From NCBI GenBank assembly GCA_000182565.2, contig KQ257455.1: a stretch of DNA of 64,000 bases; one strand, written 5' to 3'. The stretch is from Spizellomyces punctatus DAOM BR117. Its lineage: Eukaryota. A program made the position numbers and the translations under genes. This document shows, in pieces, positions 55,416-64,000 of the stretch; positions within the stretch are counted from its first letter, which is position 1; every line of letters begins with the position of its first letter. Below the pieces are notes generated by a model. It saw nothing but the letters and a program-made list of their open reading frames with translations. It ran no database searches and was not told the DNA's origin.

Positions 55416-55680
55416 GATGCCTTGTTTGCTCACAAGTAACGCGCAGTGAGTGGTTGGGAGGCACGTGACCAAGCGTTTCGTCGTCGTCGTCGTGCTTTTT
55501 AAGAGCGTTGGCCGACGTTGTTGAAAAGGAGAACGTTGCCAGATGGGTAATGAAAGGAACGCTGCTGAGGGCTTTGGTTTGTAGAGATCTCGGGCTGGAG
55601 CAGGACATGCGAACGGCGATGGGCCACCAAATAGTGCAGTGTACTATGCATCTAATACCTTCATAATAGTTGATAATTAT

Positions 55681-56260
55681 TTAATAGCTATTCGCATCTA
55701 GTATTGTAGAGGCTTTCTGCCATATAGTTTCACCCCAACATTGCTGTGTATCTTTATCCATTCTGCATTTTCGATGCATGCACTCGGTTGGGGTAATGCC
55801 AGTATCACGTGATGCACCTTCCATCTCGCCCCAACAGTCTTCTCCTGGTTTCCCCTCGTTGCGGCCTTGCGAAAGACAACCTCGATAATGCAGCAGGATT
55901 GTTGCGTCTTGTAGGTATGTATGGAGTGCGTTCAGAGTAGCGCATGGTTCAATGCGGTCATAATAGCTTTCGCCTAACCTGCCGGCTATCGCCTTACTTA
56001 GGAACAGGATGAGTGGACTGTAGTCAAATAACAGATTCAATCAAACAATCTAGACCGAACTTACTCGAGAGAAGAGTTTGGCTGGTACAACGTGCCAACC
56101 GGGAGTAACCATTCTGGGTTATCTGGTGTGGTAGCAGGGGGCGCGGACGATCTAAGGTAAAGGACGTACAATTCAACTACTATCGAATACATTCTTGGGC
56201 AGTTCAGTCTGTAGCCAGTATGACCATAGTGGGCCGAGTTCGTTGTAACTACCAACTTCA
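55681..56260 (-). pseudogene. Possible decayed HNH endonuclease (HNH_2/Crinkler-type) gene
   Basis: TRRRLLGRDGRCI, then frameshifted TGITPTECMH, resembling R.RDGRCVITG..E.AHI; upstream PDNPEWLLPVGT. Confidence 0.35.
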
Positions 56261-56371
56261 TAAAGACATGAGCCGCAAATATACCTGAAACCACCCGTGA
56301 ATCGCGAATAGTCTCGACGACTGTGCTCACCCGCATCTGTTTTCTTTCCGTACTATGATAGGAGAGCGAAT

Positions 56372-59300
56372 ATGACAACGGCGCTTACCAAAACTATTTT
56401 GGCTACGCCAGAGACAGACCTCGACCATGTTCACTCATCCATCTCTTCATCTGCTGTCGGTCCTGGGTCCAGATTACGCGGTTCGTTAGTCCATCGTAAG
56501 GTTCTACAGTCCTCCTCTGGCGACACGGCCGTGCAGACGTCCACTGCGGGGCGTAGGGTGTCACGCTTACGAGCAGAGAGAGGAACTACGGTAGATTCAG
56601 AAGGGTCAAATGATGCATCTACATCCTCTTCCGTGTCTTGTGGGCGTAGACGGTTGGAATTTGTGGACCTCTCCGATTATGATGATGTCCTCTGTGACAT
56701 TCTTTTGGACTCGGTCTATCTAGGTTTCCGCACTCACAAGATGAACGGGGAATACTACGGGGTCCCTGAGCAGGGTCACGCACGTCTATCTAAATCCGGC
56801 TCAGAGGGTCAGAGGCAACGGCCTGCTGGGATTGATCGCACTCGGATTGATAGTGACGCCTTGGCAGCTGTAGTTGTGGATATTGTTAGGGACCAGATTC
56901 TTGAGAATAAAAGCATCGATAGTGCCTCTACAGCGCTAATGAAGTGCCTGATCGGACCGGCCTCTATCAAATGGTATGCTGGCTCAATGGTGTGGCCCAT
57001 ACCCTTATCATTATTATTCATTTTAATCTCCTTTCCAAAGTGACGGGGCGCCATCCTCCGTCATTAAACGGTCTTTTCAAGCTTTTCGGCCTTTTTTTGA
57101 AGGTAGATCTAGAGACCAGCTAGAAGACTTCCGAGAGTGAGAATGACAGTCTTTGTTTGGTTCTGAAAACGACCAAAAGCTGACGTTGAATAATACTTGC
57201 AGTCATGCAAAGCGGTATTTGGGCATGTATCATCCTGCTGCTGGTTACGAGATTGCGCAGACATCCCGGTATAAGTCATCGGGCAAAGTTGAAGCATGCA
57301 TTATAGCTACACGAGAATTCAATGCTGGAGATCAAATCCCACATTGCACTGGTGTTATCGCTGAGCTGGATGAGGATGACGAAGAGTACCTCGTGAACAG
57401 AGACTTTAGCGTCATGTTTTCAACAAAGAAGGATTGCATGTGTCTGTTCCTTGGGCCAGCACGATTCGTGAATCATGATTGCGATCCAAACTGCAAGGTA
57501 AATATGTAGAGATCAGAACTGAATGTGAATTTTACTGGGTTGATAACTGGTGATTTTGAACGTCCAGTTCATTTTGCTTAATGAGCGTGCCAATCTCATT
57601 TGCTTCAAAGTGCTGAGGGACATAAAAGTAGGCGAGGAATTAACGACATTCTACGGAAGTAACTACTTTGGAGAAGATAATAAGGAATGTTTATGTGAAA
57701 CATGCGAAAGGTACTTGGACACGAAACAGCTCTTGATAGGAACATCTTCTTATCCGGATGGTAAATAGACTTCAAAAAGGGGGATTCACACCAGCTGATT
57801 CACTGTCAGGCGTCCTTGGTGACGATGAATACGAGAAGCCCATAGTGGCTAAGCTCCGAAGGAATCAAGCCCGTACCCAAACCTGGTCCTATTATCGGAA
57901 TGTTTTCGCGGGTATTGATTTTGGCGATAAAGGCAATGGCAGTGATGTGGACATGGATGGTTCTGCTAAATGTGGCACCTGTGGTGGTGAGCTTACGGAG
58001 GACGATCTAGCTGCCCCTCATTTTCGTACGTCGAAGAATGCACCCACAGGCGCGAAAACGTTGGGTAGTAAAGAATGCCAGCGTTGCGTTCGTCATATGA
58101 GAATCTTTGGGGTGAAGTGGCCCACCCGAAAGACAAAGAAGGGGCGACTGCCGAATCTCTTAACGAACATGATCGAAAAGGTGCACATCCTACTCCGATT
58201 GAAGCTATCCTTGAATCCATTCTAATTCGTATTCTACGACGTAGAGCACTGGAATAAATCCAAGATCAGGCTCCCGAAGGAAGTCAAGTGGCACCCCAGC
58301 TACCTCACGAATCTCTGGAAAGCTACCCTCTCAGGCAATCGAAGGAAGAGGTCGGTCTCGATCACGATCAGTCATGACGTCTGAGGATAGTGATGGCCAA
58401 AAAGAACGCCGCTCGACTTCGGTTAGCCTAAACTCGTCAAGATTGCAAGCTGTCGAAGCGGCTGGTATGGACTGTTTCTCAGAGTGTTCGATAACATTTC
58501 TTCACACATTACTTTCATAGACGGTCTGAGAGACGATTTGGGGTCTGATATCCTCGATAGCATCCGTAGGGCGAGACGTACCAAGCGACAAGAGGGAAAA
58601 TATTTCGAAATGCTCCATGGACCAGAAACCAAAGTATGAAATTGTCTAGACTAAATTTGCACCTTAACATATTTCTCACAAGTCTGTACTTTTAGCGCAA
58701 GCGCGATGCCGCCATCCAAAAGCGGGAAGAAGTCGCAAAAGTACCCGGAAAACTTGTGCCAGACCGTGGGTGTTCCCTTCAAGTGCAGACTTCCCCATCG
58801 TTTTGCAGGTATTCACAGAAAATGGTTGCTTTTTCCTAGTCGATCAAGTACATGCTGTCTTCGTCTATCCGGACGATGCCGCTTACCCGTATTGGTGGCC
58901 AGCAATGGTGAGGTGCAGATGATCAGCTTCGTTATCATGAAACTAGCACTCATCGGATGCTTTACACCTCTAGGTGGTGCCGATTTCGGAGATCGATGAG
59001 AGCATGCCAGAGGTCGAGCGACCGAACCAGAGGATTGTTTCATACTTCGAGAACCATTCGTTGTAAGTCCGCGTGAGTTAAATGTGCAATATGGCCGATC
59101 TTCCTTTACAACTTCGACGATACAGTTCAGCGGTGGATCCGCAAGAAATACGCTTGTTCATCCCAGATGAGGAGCCATATCTCACGTTTTCAAAAATCCC
59201 CGGATTTGGTAATGACAAGGCGGTGAAAAAAGCGTTAAGATTCATCGAAACTGGAACGTGCAAAGGATGGCACTGGAAAAAATGGGGTCTCAGCGCAAAG

Positions 59301-62300
59301 CTGAAAACCGATGATGCCAACGGGAAAAAGCGATCTGGAAAGGTTCGGTCAAGGGGATGCCCAATTCCTTGCCCTTTCACTAATGATGGAACTTCCACTC
59401 ACTCCAGAGCGTGAGGAAAAGTGATCCTGGGTCCCTCCGTCGAGCAGTGCATAATAGCCGAGAATACTCTGAAGGTCCAGCTGCACTGATTTCTGGTTCC
59501 GAGAGTGAGGCTAGAATATCTAGACGGCGGCGAGGAGGACGTGCAGCAGAGACATCCGGAAAGAGTGCGTGTTGAAGTTTAATTCTTCTTTTTGTGGATC
59601 CCGTTTTGAAATGTCCAGGTTCTATCCTGCAGATAAGAGTGCATCCGCTACTCCACCTGAACTTGAATCTGTGGATCAGGCCCAAGACAATGTGTCTGAC
59701 GGCCCTCTGCCCGTCTTGCGAACCGTTCCGCGACGCTTGCGGTCGTCATTGCAGATGGGTGCGAGCAATCATGGCAGAATCTCTGACGTCGCATCCATAG
59801 ATGGTGGGGACTTTCATGGTGAGGAGCTGGTTGACGTGGAAGGCATTTCCGACAGTGCAACTCCTGCCGATGAAGAACATGCGACATTCGAATCGGCCGA
59901 TGTGTCTGCGTCTGGGCTTATTATTTCAGACGTTGCCAGGGATACGATTTCTGCCGAACAAACTGGTTCATCCTTCATAGCAGAAAACAAAGCGCTATGC
60001 ACCGTTTCGCCGTCAAAACAATCAGACGGCTTGTTCCCTGAGACCCTTTCTTCAGACGAGGAAGAGGAAGAAGATGAAGTGGTTCTAGTTCATGTAAAAA
60101 CATTATCACAACGATGGGACGGTCTAGCGGCGCGTGGTCGATTCAGGGACGTCATGAATTCCCCCTTCACTCAATTTGCGCCGATCTTGGCGAAGCATGC
60201 CAGCCGGCGCCCTGCGCGTGTGTCAACTGCACAAACACTGGAACCAAGTCAGCCAGTGGATGAGAGTACTATGCTGACTGCCGCTGGAAGGCAGGTTCTT
60301 CCGAATGTTTTGCGACGGTTGACATTGCATGACCATGACAATAAGGGTCCTGGTGGTGACGATGTCCTATCTACATTTACCGTCTACCAATCTAGAAAGC
60401 CGGCTGTCGCTACCGAGAGTTGTCCGGTGAGGAATTCACCAGAAGGACGCTTTGCCCTGCAAAAGGATGGGAACGATGGAGATGTTCCTTGTTCTGGTGA
60501 TATGGCACTTGCTCACAATATCCGTTGTACACAATCCCGACCATTTCAAATCGATCAATTATCAACGTCCTCTCAGTATATGACCGAGCGCACATCAAGT
60601 CAAAACCAGCCATGTTATCGAAGAGGAGACTGGGTGATAGCAGAGATAGACGTCAAGTGGTACGTGGCGCGAATCGTTGATATTGCTGTCAACGATGAGT
60701 CCTATCTGCTGCACTTTTGGGGCAAGCCAGTTAGGTAAGTTATCGCAGATCCCTTATATCAATCACGGCTATTGTAAATATATGTTTCCGTACAAACAGC
60801 GCTGAGAAATGGGTAAGCTCTCTCTTCATGCGCCCGTTGAAAGAGCGAGTTGTAGCAAAAATGCAACCAGAATGCGCAGATGGTAACGTAACGCACGGCC
60901 CTCCTGTAACTTTGCTGGCCCTTTTAACACAAAATTGCGGCATAGGGTTTCAGACGTGCCAGGTGGAGCAAGAGCTCGATCGGATTTGGGACAGCATGTC
61001 GTCCGCAGGTACGTCTCAACCTTTCTTCAGTCTCGTTGCATTGTCTCATACATGTGTCAGTACCGGCTAGCGGTTGTGATAGAGGACTGATCAATGTCAG
61101 TACTGGAAGTAGCGGCAAACAGCGGTCTCGTTTCTGCGACGGTACATTAGTCAGTCCACAGCAATCTGGTCGAAACGACTCTGATGGACCTCACCGCGAT
61201 TTGACAAAATGCTCAGGAAGACAGGAGAGTCTCGATCGAAAATTGAAAAACATTACAGCTGCCGACGTTTTATGGACTCGCGGTGATTATGGGTTTGCGA
61301 AGAATCCCCGGAACAGAGCCATACGCTGGCGTCCAAGTACGGCATATGCACAATACCTACGAAAATGGCAGCAGAGACCGGAAAAGGCCTCGAGTGATTC
61401 AGAGGATGAAGATGTTCGGTTTACACAAACTCGTTCAAACCAATATCGTTGTCGTTCACGGAGCGTCAGTTCGGCGTCTGACGATGGGCGGTGTGCACGA
61501 TCGAAGCGCTTGAGGCATTCTTCTAGAGAACAATATGGTAACTCATCCATACCCGGCAAATCCCAAGGCAGAACTGCTGATGAATCACCTTATGTTATTC
61601 CACCAACGTGCCTTCAAGGCGGAGTACAACGTAAGCGATTTTAGCCAGACGCCCTTCTTATCTGTACCTGGATTTGACCCGAGCTCTCCTACAGCGAGAG
61701 ATAAAGCACGAATTTGCAGATTCTATTCCGGTCATCCAAAATCCTGTAAATATGGAGAGCGCTGCTGGTATGATCCTTTGGTCCGTCAGCTGGTGTGACA
61801 GGCAGCGGCTAATGAAGCACTTTGGTCACGTCACAGGAATCGTCATCTGGAGCCCAATGACTCGATCAATCCTGGGACTCATCATAGGATGTCTTCTGGT
61901 AGAGCACAAGAAGATCTAATGGAATCCGATTCGGCGGTACTGAATATCGAGGCGTGCTTTCCTCTATCCCATGGAACTGAACCAAATACCCCGTCAAGAC
62001 TATCTAAATTGACTGCTGTCAATGTCGCGGATGCACCAGCTGCATTTCCGGTGGCGCTTTTGATTCCCGAATGCACCGACGTTATAGACCCTAGGACATC
62101 CACCGCATTCGGTCCGGGGTATGTACCCAATCCAGGACCGATTGCAGTGCAGAACGGCAACATTTCAGCATGCAACGACTCACCGATCAAAGAGGACCGA
62201 TATGAGAAGAACAAGCAGGTTTTTTACCAAGCGGTACCTGAGATAGACCCGGATCAAGAGGTGTCTACATACCTCACTCAGGTACCGGAAGCTCCCACAG

Positions 62301-63469
62301 AGGTAGAGATCCATAATCCTGGAAACCACAATACGTGTGTTCCTTTCACCACCACCGCTCTCAATGAGCATCATGACGACAAAGCGACCCGACCCGCATC
62401 GTCACATTTGCCTGGAGAACTCGCGATGAATTCGGGCAAGCAATGTGATACTGGCAGTTGGACGGTAGCGCTAGACGCTTCACTCCGGTTGCCCCAGGAT
62501 GCATATATTGAGTCAAGCAAACTCGCGAATATTCCTTGTCAGATATCTGGAAGAGATCCGACGGGGTCATCACCTCTTCACGCCGGGCCGTGGAGCGCAT
62601 ACACTTCGTCGCACAGTAATACTTTGACGGTAGGAGCTCCTCGTGAGTCCGTATCGTTCTGTACGCCTTGTACACCACCTGGAACACGTCCCATTCTACT
62701 TCCCGACCGCAAACGAGCAAATAGTACGAAATCCTCGATCCCGAGAGCAGTAGTAGGGTCTCCCACCCCGGTGCGATATCATGGGATATCTTATTCTGTT
62801 CCTCCACGACTGCAGCTACCTCATGATTACATGGACGTTTCTGGTGGCCAGCTAGAACATCGCCGCAAATCATCAGAGACTGGCTGTGGAGGCGGACACA
62901 AGCGTCGAAAAACAGAGGTCTACCTTGAGGAACTATCCTTTGCCACCCTTCCGTCACCGCGTACCGATACTCCGTCCATCAGACACAAAAAAGCCATTAT
63001 TCAAATCAACTGTGAATCAGCGTTATTTAGTCCTGTCGAAGCCCCGATCTCGTCCATGGTGCACGACGCAAGTGAGTCGAAACTTGATTTCTTAACGCGG
63101 GACCAGGAGCTCAAGTTGTTGGATTCACCGGGGCGGATGTGCTATAGGGGGATGACAAGACGTCAAATTGACACGCCAATGGAAGATGATGACGCCTCCA
63201 CTAGCAGGAAGACCATAGGAGCTTTGCCGAATCTGACATCGCAGAGTGATGGGAACGACCCGGACGTACCGGAAGACAATGTGGCATTGTCAAGCAAGAT
63301 GGATGCTAATGTCGCAGATACCAGGGACACAGTGAACGCACATACGCCCTCCCAATCTGTATTGCATGGAGATCACCGTGGTAGTGTCCGTCGAAAGCGT
63401 GGTAGCACCTTGGAAATTGTCATTGATGTGTCGGATCGGCCAAAGCATTATACAAGAGCTTTAGTATAG
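56372..63469 (+). CDS. SET9: Histone H4K20 methyltransferase Set9/KMT5 with PWWP, Tudor-knot-like and CCCH domains, many exons
   Basis: [77 protein letters not shown]. Downstream exons splice in frame through to TAG 63469. Confidence 0.85.
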
Positions 63470-64000
63470 AGTTGTGTGCACCTGGTGGTTTTTTGCTGCA
63501 CGTCCGGAGATGATTGTAAATAACCTGTAAGACTAATATTTATGTAAAAAGAACAAGTAAATTCTAATTCCTTTAAGCAATATTTTCGCTGTTTTTATAG
63601 GTGGGTAACGAGAGAGAGAGTGTGTGTGTACTACAATTCCCGGTTACTACAAAAAAAGAAACTCAAAAGAAGCTACCCTTAACCCTAAATCTAAATTCCT
63701 AAAAACTTACTACTAAATCTACGAATGAAATGGGAGGTAATGATCATGTTTTTTTAATGGAAGCAGGTATTGCGCAAGCCTATAAAAAAACAAAGGAGGA
63801 GGGGCATGAGCTTCTTGGACACACCAAGAACAAAACTACTTTTTTTCTTGCCAAAACTTACTCTGTTCGTGCACAGGCATCTCATGCTTCTTGAAAGTAT
63901 TCAATTCCTCCCTAATCTGCACTTTCATCTGTGGTGTCAACTTTCTGAACGTGGCATTTCCGTCCGGTTTCCTATTATACTCGCTCTTCCTAAAGGTCGG

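Follow-up and report, generated by a model that had tools for sequence, protein, structure and literature searches.

A Set9/KMT5-like gene of Spizellomyces punctatus that probably joins a SET methyltransferase to PWWP, chromo-barrel-like and CCCH domains in one polypeptide

Does a single gene of the chytrid Spizellomyces punctatus DAOM BR117 encode both a Set9/KMT5-type methyltransferase and domains that could read chromatin marks, or have neighbouring genes been read as one? The question is raised by a stretch of 64,000 nucleotides from contig KQ257455.1 (GenBank assembly GCA_000182565.2; hereafter the window), in which a chain of open plus-strand exons spans positions 56372-63469. In fungi, targeting of Set9/KMT5 to chromatin is known for fission yeast only, where it proceeds through a separate PWWP protein, Pdp1. 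An initial annotation of the window, made from the letters alone, had proposed that the SET domain is here fused with PWWP, Tudor-knot and CCCH domains. Our analysis makes it probable that one Spizellomyces gene encodes a protein of about 2000 residues, in which a Set9/KMT5 methyltransferase in the N-terminal third is followed by a PWWP domain, a divergent chromo-barrel and a CCCH finger found in Spizellomyces only, with long disordered linkers between them and the readers thus in cis to the enzyme.

The gene was modelled by homology-guided splicing with the 1995-residue protein P0001 of Spizellomyces sp. 'palustris' as guide. This protein, which carries Pfam SET and PWWP domains, was found by a search with the SET exon, where identity is 100%, and at each junction the GT/GC..AG intron that best restored the alignment was chosen. 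The modelled coding sequence (CDS) begins at ATG 56372, ends with the stop codon at 63467-63469 and comprises 6006 nt for 2001 residues:

56372-63469, plus strand: Set9/KMT5-like coding region from homology-guided splicing, with 18 exons and 17 introns
56372-56973, 57041-57136, 57203-57497, 57568-57710, 57769-58180 and 58245-58464, plus strand: exons 1-6 from the same splicing
58521-58633, 58696-58765, 58840-58907, 58974-59062, 59126-59342 and 59408-59564, plus strand: exons 7-12, likewise
59633-60734, 60800-60882, 60946-61008, 61061-61630, 61695-61767 and 61837-63469, plus strand: exons 13-18, likewise

All 17 introns in the model are GT..AG and 52-74 nt long. The model matches residues 73-2073 of the public S. 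punctatus protein SPPG_09168 (P0118, 2073 residues) at every letter, indicating that the initial annotation had rebuilt a public gene model from raw sequence. The open frame that it had followed from the SET exons to 63469 is confirmed by this identity, the junction it had doubted (58766-58839) is intron 8 of the public model, and the peptides it had quoted were all found in the window at their coordinates. The gene itself is not new: the public model is annotated 'uncharacterized protein' and already carries Pfam flags for SET and PWWP. In the alignment with P0001, 1678 of 2008 columns are identical with 7 gap events, and the sister species has the same exon structure, predicted independently. 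Since single open exons reach 367 and 544 codons in addition to this identity, the gene model lies beyond chance. Retention of an intron brings in a stop within 1-62 codons (computed over the 17 introns), except for intron 14 (60883-60945), the 63 nt of which are a multiple of three without an in-frame stop; its retention would add 21 residues and leave the frame intact. Intron 14 is spliced out in both public models (P0118 and P0001).

The N-terminal third holds the enzyme, for which we distinguish three features:

56507-57793, plus strand: KMT5B/C-like catalytic module (N-terminal helical part, SET and post-SET Cys cluster), from phmmer against the Protein Data Bank (PDB)
57297-57657, plus strand: Pfam SET core, the module being interrupted by introns 1-4
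57769-58180, plus strand: exon 5, with the conserved Cys pairs behind SET and a C-x-R-C-x-R-H...W-P-x-R motif common to Set9 homologs

Residues 118-459 of P0118 aligned with chain residues 29-334 of KMT5B/SUV420H1 at E 2e-43. The KMT5B/C chains together ranged from 2e-43 to 2e-40, and the next families (SET1, MLL and ASH1L) came at 5e-5 or worse. Pfam PF00856 (SET) scored 51.5 bits against a cut-off of 22.4 on residues 337-433 of P0118; on single exons of the window, SET reached 29.1 bits (above the cut-off) and 20.1 bits (below it). A profile of the alignment of 38 Set9 sequences (A1) matched KMT5B at 1.1e-85. The alignment to 3s8p retains the stretches DFSVM, LGPA-F-NHDC-PNCKF, GEE...YG and C-x-C-x-x-C-E-R. 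In these we presume the residues for cofactor binding and catalysis and the cysteines that bind zinc behind SET, and their columns are invariant across the 38 homologs. Exon 3 is identical to P0001 at 99 of 99 residues. In exon 5, C330, C333, C362, C365, R367, W376, P377 and R379 (numbering of P0002, same alignment) are nearly invariant, and the region aligns with Coemansia Set9. An AlphaFold model was made from the 38-sequence alignment for the Phlyctochytrium ortholog P0002 (856 residues) in place of the Spizellomyces protein. Its SET module has pLDDT values of 85-94 and TM-scores, by target length, of 0.71-0.72 against 3s8p, 4au7 and 4bup (SUV420H1/H2). These results clearly support the Set9/KMT5 identity first assigned to the SET domain, and by family membership the enzyme should methylate H4K20.

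The next domain lies about a thousand nucleotides downstream:

58857-59288, plus strand: PWWP domain in exons 9-11 (introns 58908-58973 and 59063-59125), from Pfam PF00855

PF00855 scored 26.2 bits on P0118 against a cut-off of 25.6, which is marginal; orthologs scored 26.1-28.9 bits and stand-alone relatives (see below) 30-38 bits. Exons 9 and 10 show no difference from P0001 (100% identity). Searched against the PDB, a profile of 14 PWWP domains matched DNMT3B at 8.5e-9 (tandem chain) and 0.0026-0.0031 (single domains), ARID4A at 0.008, Pdp1 (2l89) at 0.019 and 1h3z at 0.8, and the meaningful matches were all PWWP-type. In the W-W-P motif, W22 and P23 do not vary among the 14 domains and W21 is nearly invariant. 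Nearly invariant as well is Y49, which lies on strand 3 and aligns with a Trp of DNMT3B; these conserved aromatic residues presumably form a methyl-lysine cage. The P0002 model, whose PWWP is 60% identical to that of the window, shows for residues 500-640 a five-strand barrel followed by helices at pLDDT 85-97 (strands 533-536, 547-551, 569-574, 580-584 and 588-590). A Foldseek search with this model listed no PWWP chain among its best 50 PDB matches; it is uninformative on the PWWP because all 50 were SET chains. The marginal Pfam score, the PDB profile matches and the confident fold of the ortholog together bear out the PWWP-like domain of the initial annotation. As for Pdp1, which the initial annotation had named for comparison, the PWWP is not specifically closest to it: among the solved structures 2l89 ranks sixth, after DNMT3B and ARID4A chains.

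What these domains would do together can be proposed from the fission yeast system, in which the PWWP of Pdp1 is described as binding H4K20me1 and its C-terminal part as binding Set9, so that Set9 is concentrated on chromatin and methylation is raised (PMC3119473); DNA binding by this PWWP is stated to be required to maintain H4K20me2/3 (PMC6222470). In the Spizellomyces protein, methyl-lysine and DNA contacts made by the PWWP, and perhaps also by the barrel, would anchor the SET module to nucleosomes. The recruitment performed by Pdp1 in trans would thereby be built into the chytrid protein, with reading coupled to writing in cis. Tethering to nucleosomes that already carry methyl marks might favour stepwise methylation or spreading.

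The ligands of the readers could also be others. In that case the gene would still be single, but its PWWP would bind H3K36me or DNA, the third domain would be a degenerate barrel, and H4K20 methylation would be coupled to another mark or to bulk chromatin. The ranking of DNMT3B and ARID4A ahead of Pdp1 among solved PWWP relatives is in keeping with this, as are the H3K36me3 binding reported for the DNMT3A and BRPF1 PWWPs (PMC3119473) and the link between H4K20me3 and H3K36me3 that a study of Zymoseptoria draws through the chromo-barrel protein Eaf3 (Kmt5-Eaf3-Ash1; PMC10553808). Furthermore, the tryptophan of the G-W motif of Kickxellales barrels is unmatched in Spizellomyces in the hhalign alignment described below. 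On the other hand, Pdp1 is the one fungal PWWP protein whose cooperation with Set9 has been demonstrated, and it binds H4K20me according to both reports on it (PMC3119473, PMC6222470); furthermore, the MSL3 chromo-barrel is reported to bind H4K20me1 together with DNA (PMC6222470). We therefore regard readers of other ligands as a serious alternative that is nevertheless the less probable one, and retain the proposal that the predicted readers serve H4K20 methylation in cis.

The identity of the third domain is less readily seen:

60607-60830, plus strand: Tudor-knot/chromo-barrel-like domain in exons 13 and 14, split by intron 13 (60735-60799), from hhalign

The two Spizellomyces sequences were compared by hhalign with 25 Kickxellales Set9 C-termini in which Pfam calls Tudor-knot and MSL3-chromo-like domains. 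The match to the Tudor-knot profile had a probability of 77-79% (E 1.6e-5 to 1.9e-5, 43-44 columns). When windows were slid along the whole protein, 3 of 97 scored 67-79%, all of them over the third domain, whereas non-overlapping windows gave at most 3.4% and eight shuffled controls at most 8%. A full-length MAFFT alignment also placed the domain, unguided, on the Tudor-knot columns of Kickxellales and Fonticula, and exon 14 is 86% identical to P0001 as compared to 75-76% for the linker exons 13 and 18. Feature matches in a protein atlas were mostly Royal-family barrels, with scores of 0.76-0.83 that, being below 0.9, are a lead only.

The last domain is a putative zinc finger:

61715-61846, plus strand: single CCCH-type zinc finger in exons 17 and 18, split by intron 17 (61768-61836), from its C-x9-C-x5-C-x3-H spacing

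All Cys and the His of this finger are conserved between the two Spizellomyces species. With phmmer, the finger region matched P0117 at E 8.6e-5 in a search of 1.84 billion proteins; P0117 has six CCCH fingers with the same spacing, which Pfam scores at 60-72 bits. Since the C-x9-C-x5-C-x3-H pattern was found in 2 of 117 Set9-related proteins, both from Spizellomyces, the finger appears to be a lineage-specific addition. An RNA role is possible for it, judged from the domain type alone, and the possibly RNA-guided read-write H4K20 methylase of the initial annotation is to be taken as a proposal of this kind.

Several observations weigh against the assignment of these two domains. Pfam calls neither Tudor-knot nor CCCH: the Tudor-knot and chromo-barrel families (PF11717 and PF22732) gave no match on P0001 at E up to 1 and none on P0118 at E up to 0.01, and the CCCH families (PF00642, PF18044 and PF18345) remained sub-threshold on the finger with 11.5-14.9 bits against 24.6-29 (E 0.03-0.26); on single exons, Pfam gave SET and a weak CCCH only. 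With hmmsearch, the third domain was weakly supported (E 0.12 and 0.01). In a phmmer search of 1.84 billion representatives, a 331-residue segment of P0001 reaching from the Tudor-like domain to the CCCH matched its own cluster and one CCCH protein only. Because no further relatives were found, no alignment could be built for this segment, and AlphaFold without an alignment gave a mean pLDDT of 32.5, which is unusable.

Taken at face value, the missing Tudor-knot call, the sub-threshold finger, the low pLDDT and the atlas scores below 0.9 would mean that both resemblances are due to chance and that the part behind the PWWP is a fast-evolving disordered tail. Such a tail is difficult to reconcile with hhalign probabilities so much above those of shuffles and non-overlapping windows, with finger residues kept in both species at the spacing seen in P0117, and with an exon 14 more conserved than the linkers around it, and we consider chance resemblance improbable. 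We thus favour a divergent chromo-barrel as the probable identity of the third domain, on the strength of sequence comparison. The Tudor-knot of the initial annotation is accordingly made probable by the Kickxellales comparison though neither by Pfam nor by the single-sequence AlphaFold model, and its intron-split CCCH by the conserved spacing and the P0117 match, though at scores below the Pfam cut-offs.

The initial annotation had also set the architecture apart from those of Dikarya and animal Suv4-20. To place it, an iterated PWWP profile was run on 116 Set9 homologs. A PWWP, often with a chromo-barrel after it, lies behind SET in 57 of them, comprising nearly all chytrid rows, Kickxellales, two Mortierellaceae and Fonticula alba, while the profile found none in the Schizosaccharomyces, Dikarya, Mucorales and Entrophospora rows. 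The precomputed Pfam annotation recognises a PWWP in no more than 5 of the 116, from which it is evident that the Set9 PWWP is easily missed. In Coemansia Set9 the Pfam order is SET-PWWP-Tudor-knot; the Tudor-knot of Fonticula scores 22.7 bits against a cut-off of 20.8, and Pfam finds an MSL3-chromo-like domain in Dissophora Set9. In 13 of 115 non-Spizellomyces proteins, each a chytrid Set9, the PWWP is followed by a conserved domain of about 59 residues, as detected with a profile from which Spizellomyces had been left out; in hhalign this profile gave 61% to the Spizellomyces barrel and only 18% to the Kickxellales Tudor-knot. The layout is thus not unique to this organism: it is present in a public model and recurs across non-Dikarya fungi.

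In other lineages the PWWP stands apart from SET. The PWWP profile was also run against a database, and the 53 proteins so obtained include SET-less ones from Glomeromycota (9 rows), Basidiobolus (2) and Smittium (1). A Pfam scan of 12 of the 53 gave nine stand-alone proteins with PWWP and without SET (two of them below the PWWP cut-off), and SET only for Entrophospora Set9. The stand-alone proteins of these three groups (P0119-P0130 and P0136) are 370-770 residues long, and their PWWP domains share 35-44% identity with the one fused to Set9; for Glomeromycota, the Set9 row (P0029) contains nothing but SET. A phmmer search of the PDB with a Basidiobolus stand-alone protein gave weak ARID4A matches only and nothing on Pdp1. 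A FastTree tree was calculated from the 71 PWWP domains that cover at least 75 of the 95 profile columns, leaving out shorter matches such as Fonticula; unlabelled rows were marked 'Kickxellales_F' although P0131, P0132, P0133 and P0135 are without SET (partly incomplete models). In this tree, which is unrooted and has no outgroup, the clades follow taxonomy and the stand-alone PWWPs lie between fused clades. The split in Glomeromycota, Basidiobolus and Smittium may thus be a gene fission, which the tree fits without proving it.

Whether the Spizellomyces domains belong to a single gene can be judged from the gene structure. The stretches between coding pieces all have the length of introns and canonical ends, and since none of these gaps of 52-74 nt has room for a terminator and a promoter, this speaks for one gene. 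The sole plausible gene boundary lies behind the PWWP. Here exon 12 (59408-59564) has no Met in its open frame and is identical to P0001 at 48 of 52 residues as compared to 75% for exon 13, and must for these reasons be spliced to the PWWP exon; it follows that at most 36 nt would separate a stop from the next ATG. Moreover, as a barrel follows the PWWP in Set9 of other lineages, a downstream domain is to be expected here. On these grounds we hold a single gene to be likely.

Some findings nevertheless count against a single gene. Models from related Spizellomycetales are shorter: that of Phlyctochytrium (P0002, 856 residues) ends after the PWWP, and those of Powellomyces (P0003, 499 residues) and Fimicolochytrium (P0005, 520 residues) end before any PWWP. 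Six chytrid Set9 models (P0004, P0008, P0009, P0011, P0013 and P0016) carry unrelated Pfam domains (Roc/Ras, PF25372, CKS, RPEL) beside SET and are probably merged neighbouring genes of draft annotations; merged models thus do occur in chytrids. Of the RNA runs, X8 and X9 gave 0 reads on the region, and X7 gave 1917 reads over the 8.3 kb of 55600-63900, with the following depths:

55600-56430, plus strand: RNA depth 3-11 in run X7
56708-56984, plus strand: RNA depth 3.8 (end of exon 1), same run
56985-63078, plus strand: RNA depth 0-0.27, same run
63079-63355, plus strand: RNA depth 1.5, same run
63356-63632, plus strand: RNA depth 14.2, same run

Splice joints inside the CDS were looked for in run X7 at all 17 introns and none was listed. 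The run neither confirms nor refutes the 17 coding introns, and the argument for a single transcript is drawn from gene structure and comparison. Depth falls from 3.8 at 56708-56984 to 0 in the bin after it, where exons 2 and 3 lie. The drop could reflect a short 5' transcript, transcription that ends early around intron 1, or an artefact of read pile-up.

That predictors merged two genes, namely a SET-PWWP gene ending at stop 59412-59414 (intron 11 retained) or 59573-59575 (intron 12 retained) and a Tudor-like plus CCCH gene starting at ATG 59612, could be argued from the poor donor of intron 11 (GTTCGG), this in-frame ATG just inside intron 12, the early end of the Phlyctochytrium ortholog, the chimeric look of other chytrid models and the lack of an RNA joint here in run X7, but it is very unlikely given a stop-to-ATG space of 197 nt or only 36 nt, a Met-less exon 12 that is open in both species and conserved above the flanking linker exons, no plus-strand 3'-end peak in run X7 at 59201-59754 (depth 0.13-0.18) as opposed to that at 63356-63632, and the presence of a barrel behind the PWWP also in Set9 of Kickxellales, Fonticula, Dissophora and 13 other chytrids.

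For the single gene so supported, the RNA reads and the public model bear on both ends:

55915-56001, plus strand: intron upstream of the start codon, probably in the 5' untranslated region (UTR), from an RNA joint 55911 to 55999 (GT..AG, cut shifted by +3)
63470-63632, plus strand: 3' UTR region; towards the gene end, plus-strand RNA peaks clearly only here (bin 63356-63632, following bins of depth 0 and 1.5)

P0118 carries 72 extra N-terminal residues, read from ATG 55812 via an intron at 55915-56053. The upstream joint is supported by 3 reads of run X7 with 3 start places, which favour the acceptor at 56001 over that at 56053; the upstream frame then stops after three further codons. The 55812 region is thus probably 5' UTR with a short upstream open reading frame, and the true start ATG 56372, as in P0001. 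At the other end of the protein, the last 30 or so residues (63380-63466), which include a hydrophobic and then acidic stretch directly before the stop, are well conserved relative to P0001, the preceding tail being only about 76% identical; this may be a short binding motif. A convergent minus-strand gene at 63568-63900 is highly expressed (depth 50-232). Its poly(A) site is placed at 63568 by 17 T-run reads, and 77 reads support a CT..AC intron at about 63779-63860. No more than about 100 nt separate the 3' end of this gene from the Set9 stop, and both 3' UTRs therefore probably overlap.

With regard to earlier descriptions, the part of a survey of fungal SET proteins that deals with the Suv4-20 group gives it the SET domain only (PMC9692433), and for this reason the SET-PWWP-barrel layout seems to have been overlooked. 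A preprint on chromatin evolution places the origin of KMT5B/C in Opisthokonta, and its supplements are described as tabulating domain architectures per orthogroup (10.1101/2021.11.30.470311). Our literature search found no paper on a Set9/KMT5 fusion with PWWP or Tudor-knot/chromo-barrel, on SPPG_09168 or on Coemansia Set9, and the supplements of that preprint may already list the layout. The SET-PWWP(-barrel) layout thus seems to be widespread in early fungi and undescribed. The main interest lies in the evolutionary pattern of fused versus split forms: a fusion that several early-diverging lineages have kept, while others have it split, forms a "Rosetta stone" pattern that predicts the partner readers of KMT5, and the fused enzyme is a compact model in which to study how reading and writing of H4K20 methylation are coupled. 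More speculatively, and with considerable doubt, the ancestral KMT5 of Holomycota may have been a self-contained read-write enzyme of the order SET-PWWP-chromo-barrel, kept in chytrids, Kickxellales, Mortierellaceae and Fonticula, with the PWWP split off in Glomeromycota, Basidiobolus and Smittium and a CCCH that might bring in RNA added in Spizellomyces. If so, Set9-Pdp1 of fission yeast and Kmt5-Eaf3 of Zymoseptoria, in which the authors report finding no Pdp1 ortholog (PMC10553808), would be trans-acting remnants of this layout.

Among known systems, the catalytic module resembles those of human KMT5B/KMT5C (SUV420H1/H2) and S. pombe Set9; the alignment with KMT5B extends to the NHDC motif and the C-x-C-x-x-C behind SET. 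The Schizosaccharomyces Set9 proteins (4 rows among the 116 homologs, 433-506 residues) have no PWWP by profile search, in contrast to the approximately 2000 residues with PWWP, predicted barrel and CCCH in cis of the Spizellomyces protein. As far as the reports on the fission yeast pair describe it, the methylase and the PWWP reader cooperate there as separate proteins, whereas in Spizellomyces they would form one polypeptide; given the better scores of DNMT3B and ARID4A, this is a likeness of domain pairing rather than evidence of orthology. Closer in layout are Set9 of Kickxellales (Coemansia, Linderina, Kickxella and others), Fonticula alba (H696_04933) and Dissophora ornata, which likewise have SET, PWWP and then a Tudor-knot or MSL3-like chromo-barrel. 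These proteins are mostly 600-870 residues long with the Pfam-detected barrel at the very C-terminus; the Spizellomyces barrel, unlike that of Kickxellales, has diverged beyond what Pfam recognises, and about 800 further residues, the CCCH among them, come after it. Other fusions of writer and reader, such as SUV39/Clr4 with a chromodomain and NSD with a PWWP, also combine a SET enzyme with a Royal-family reader, but their SET families are different ones, and so are their target marks from the one expected for Spizellomyces Set9.

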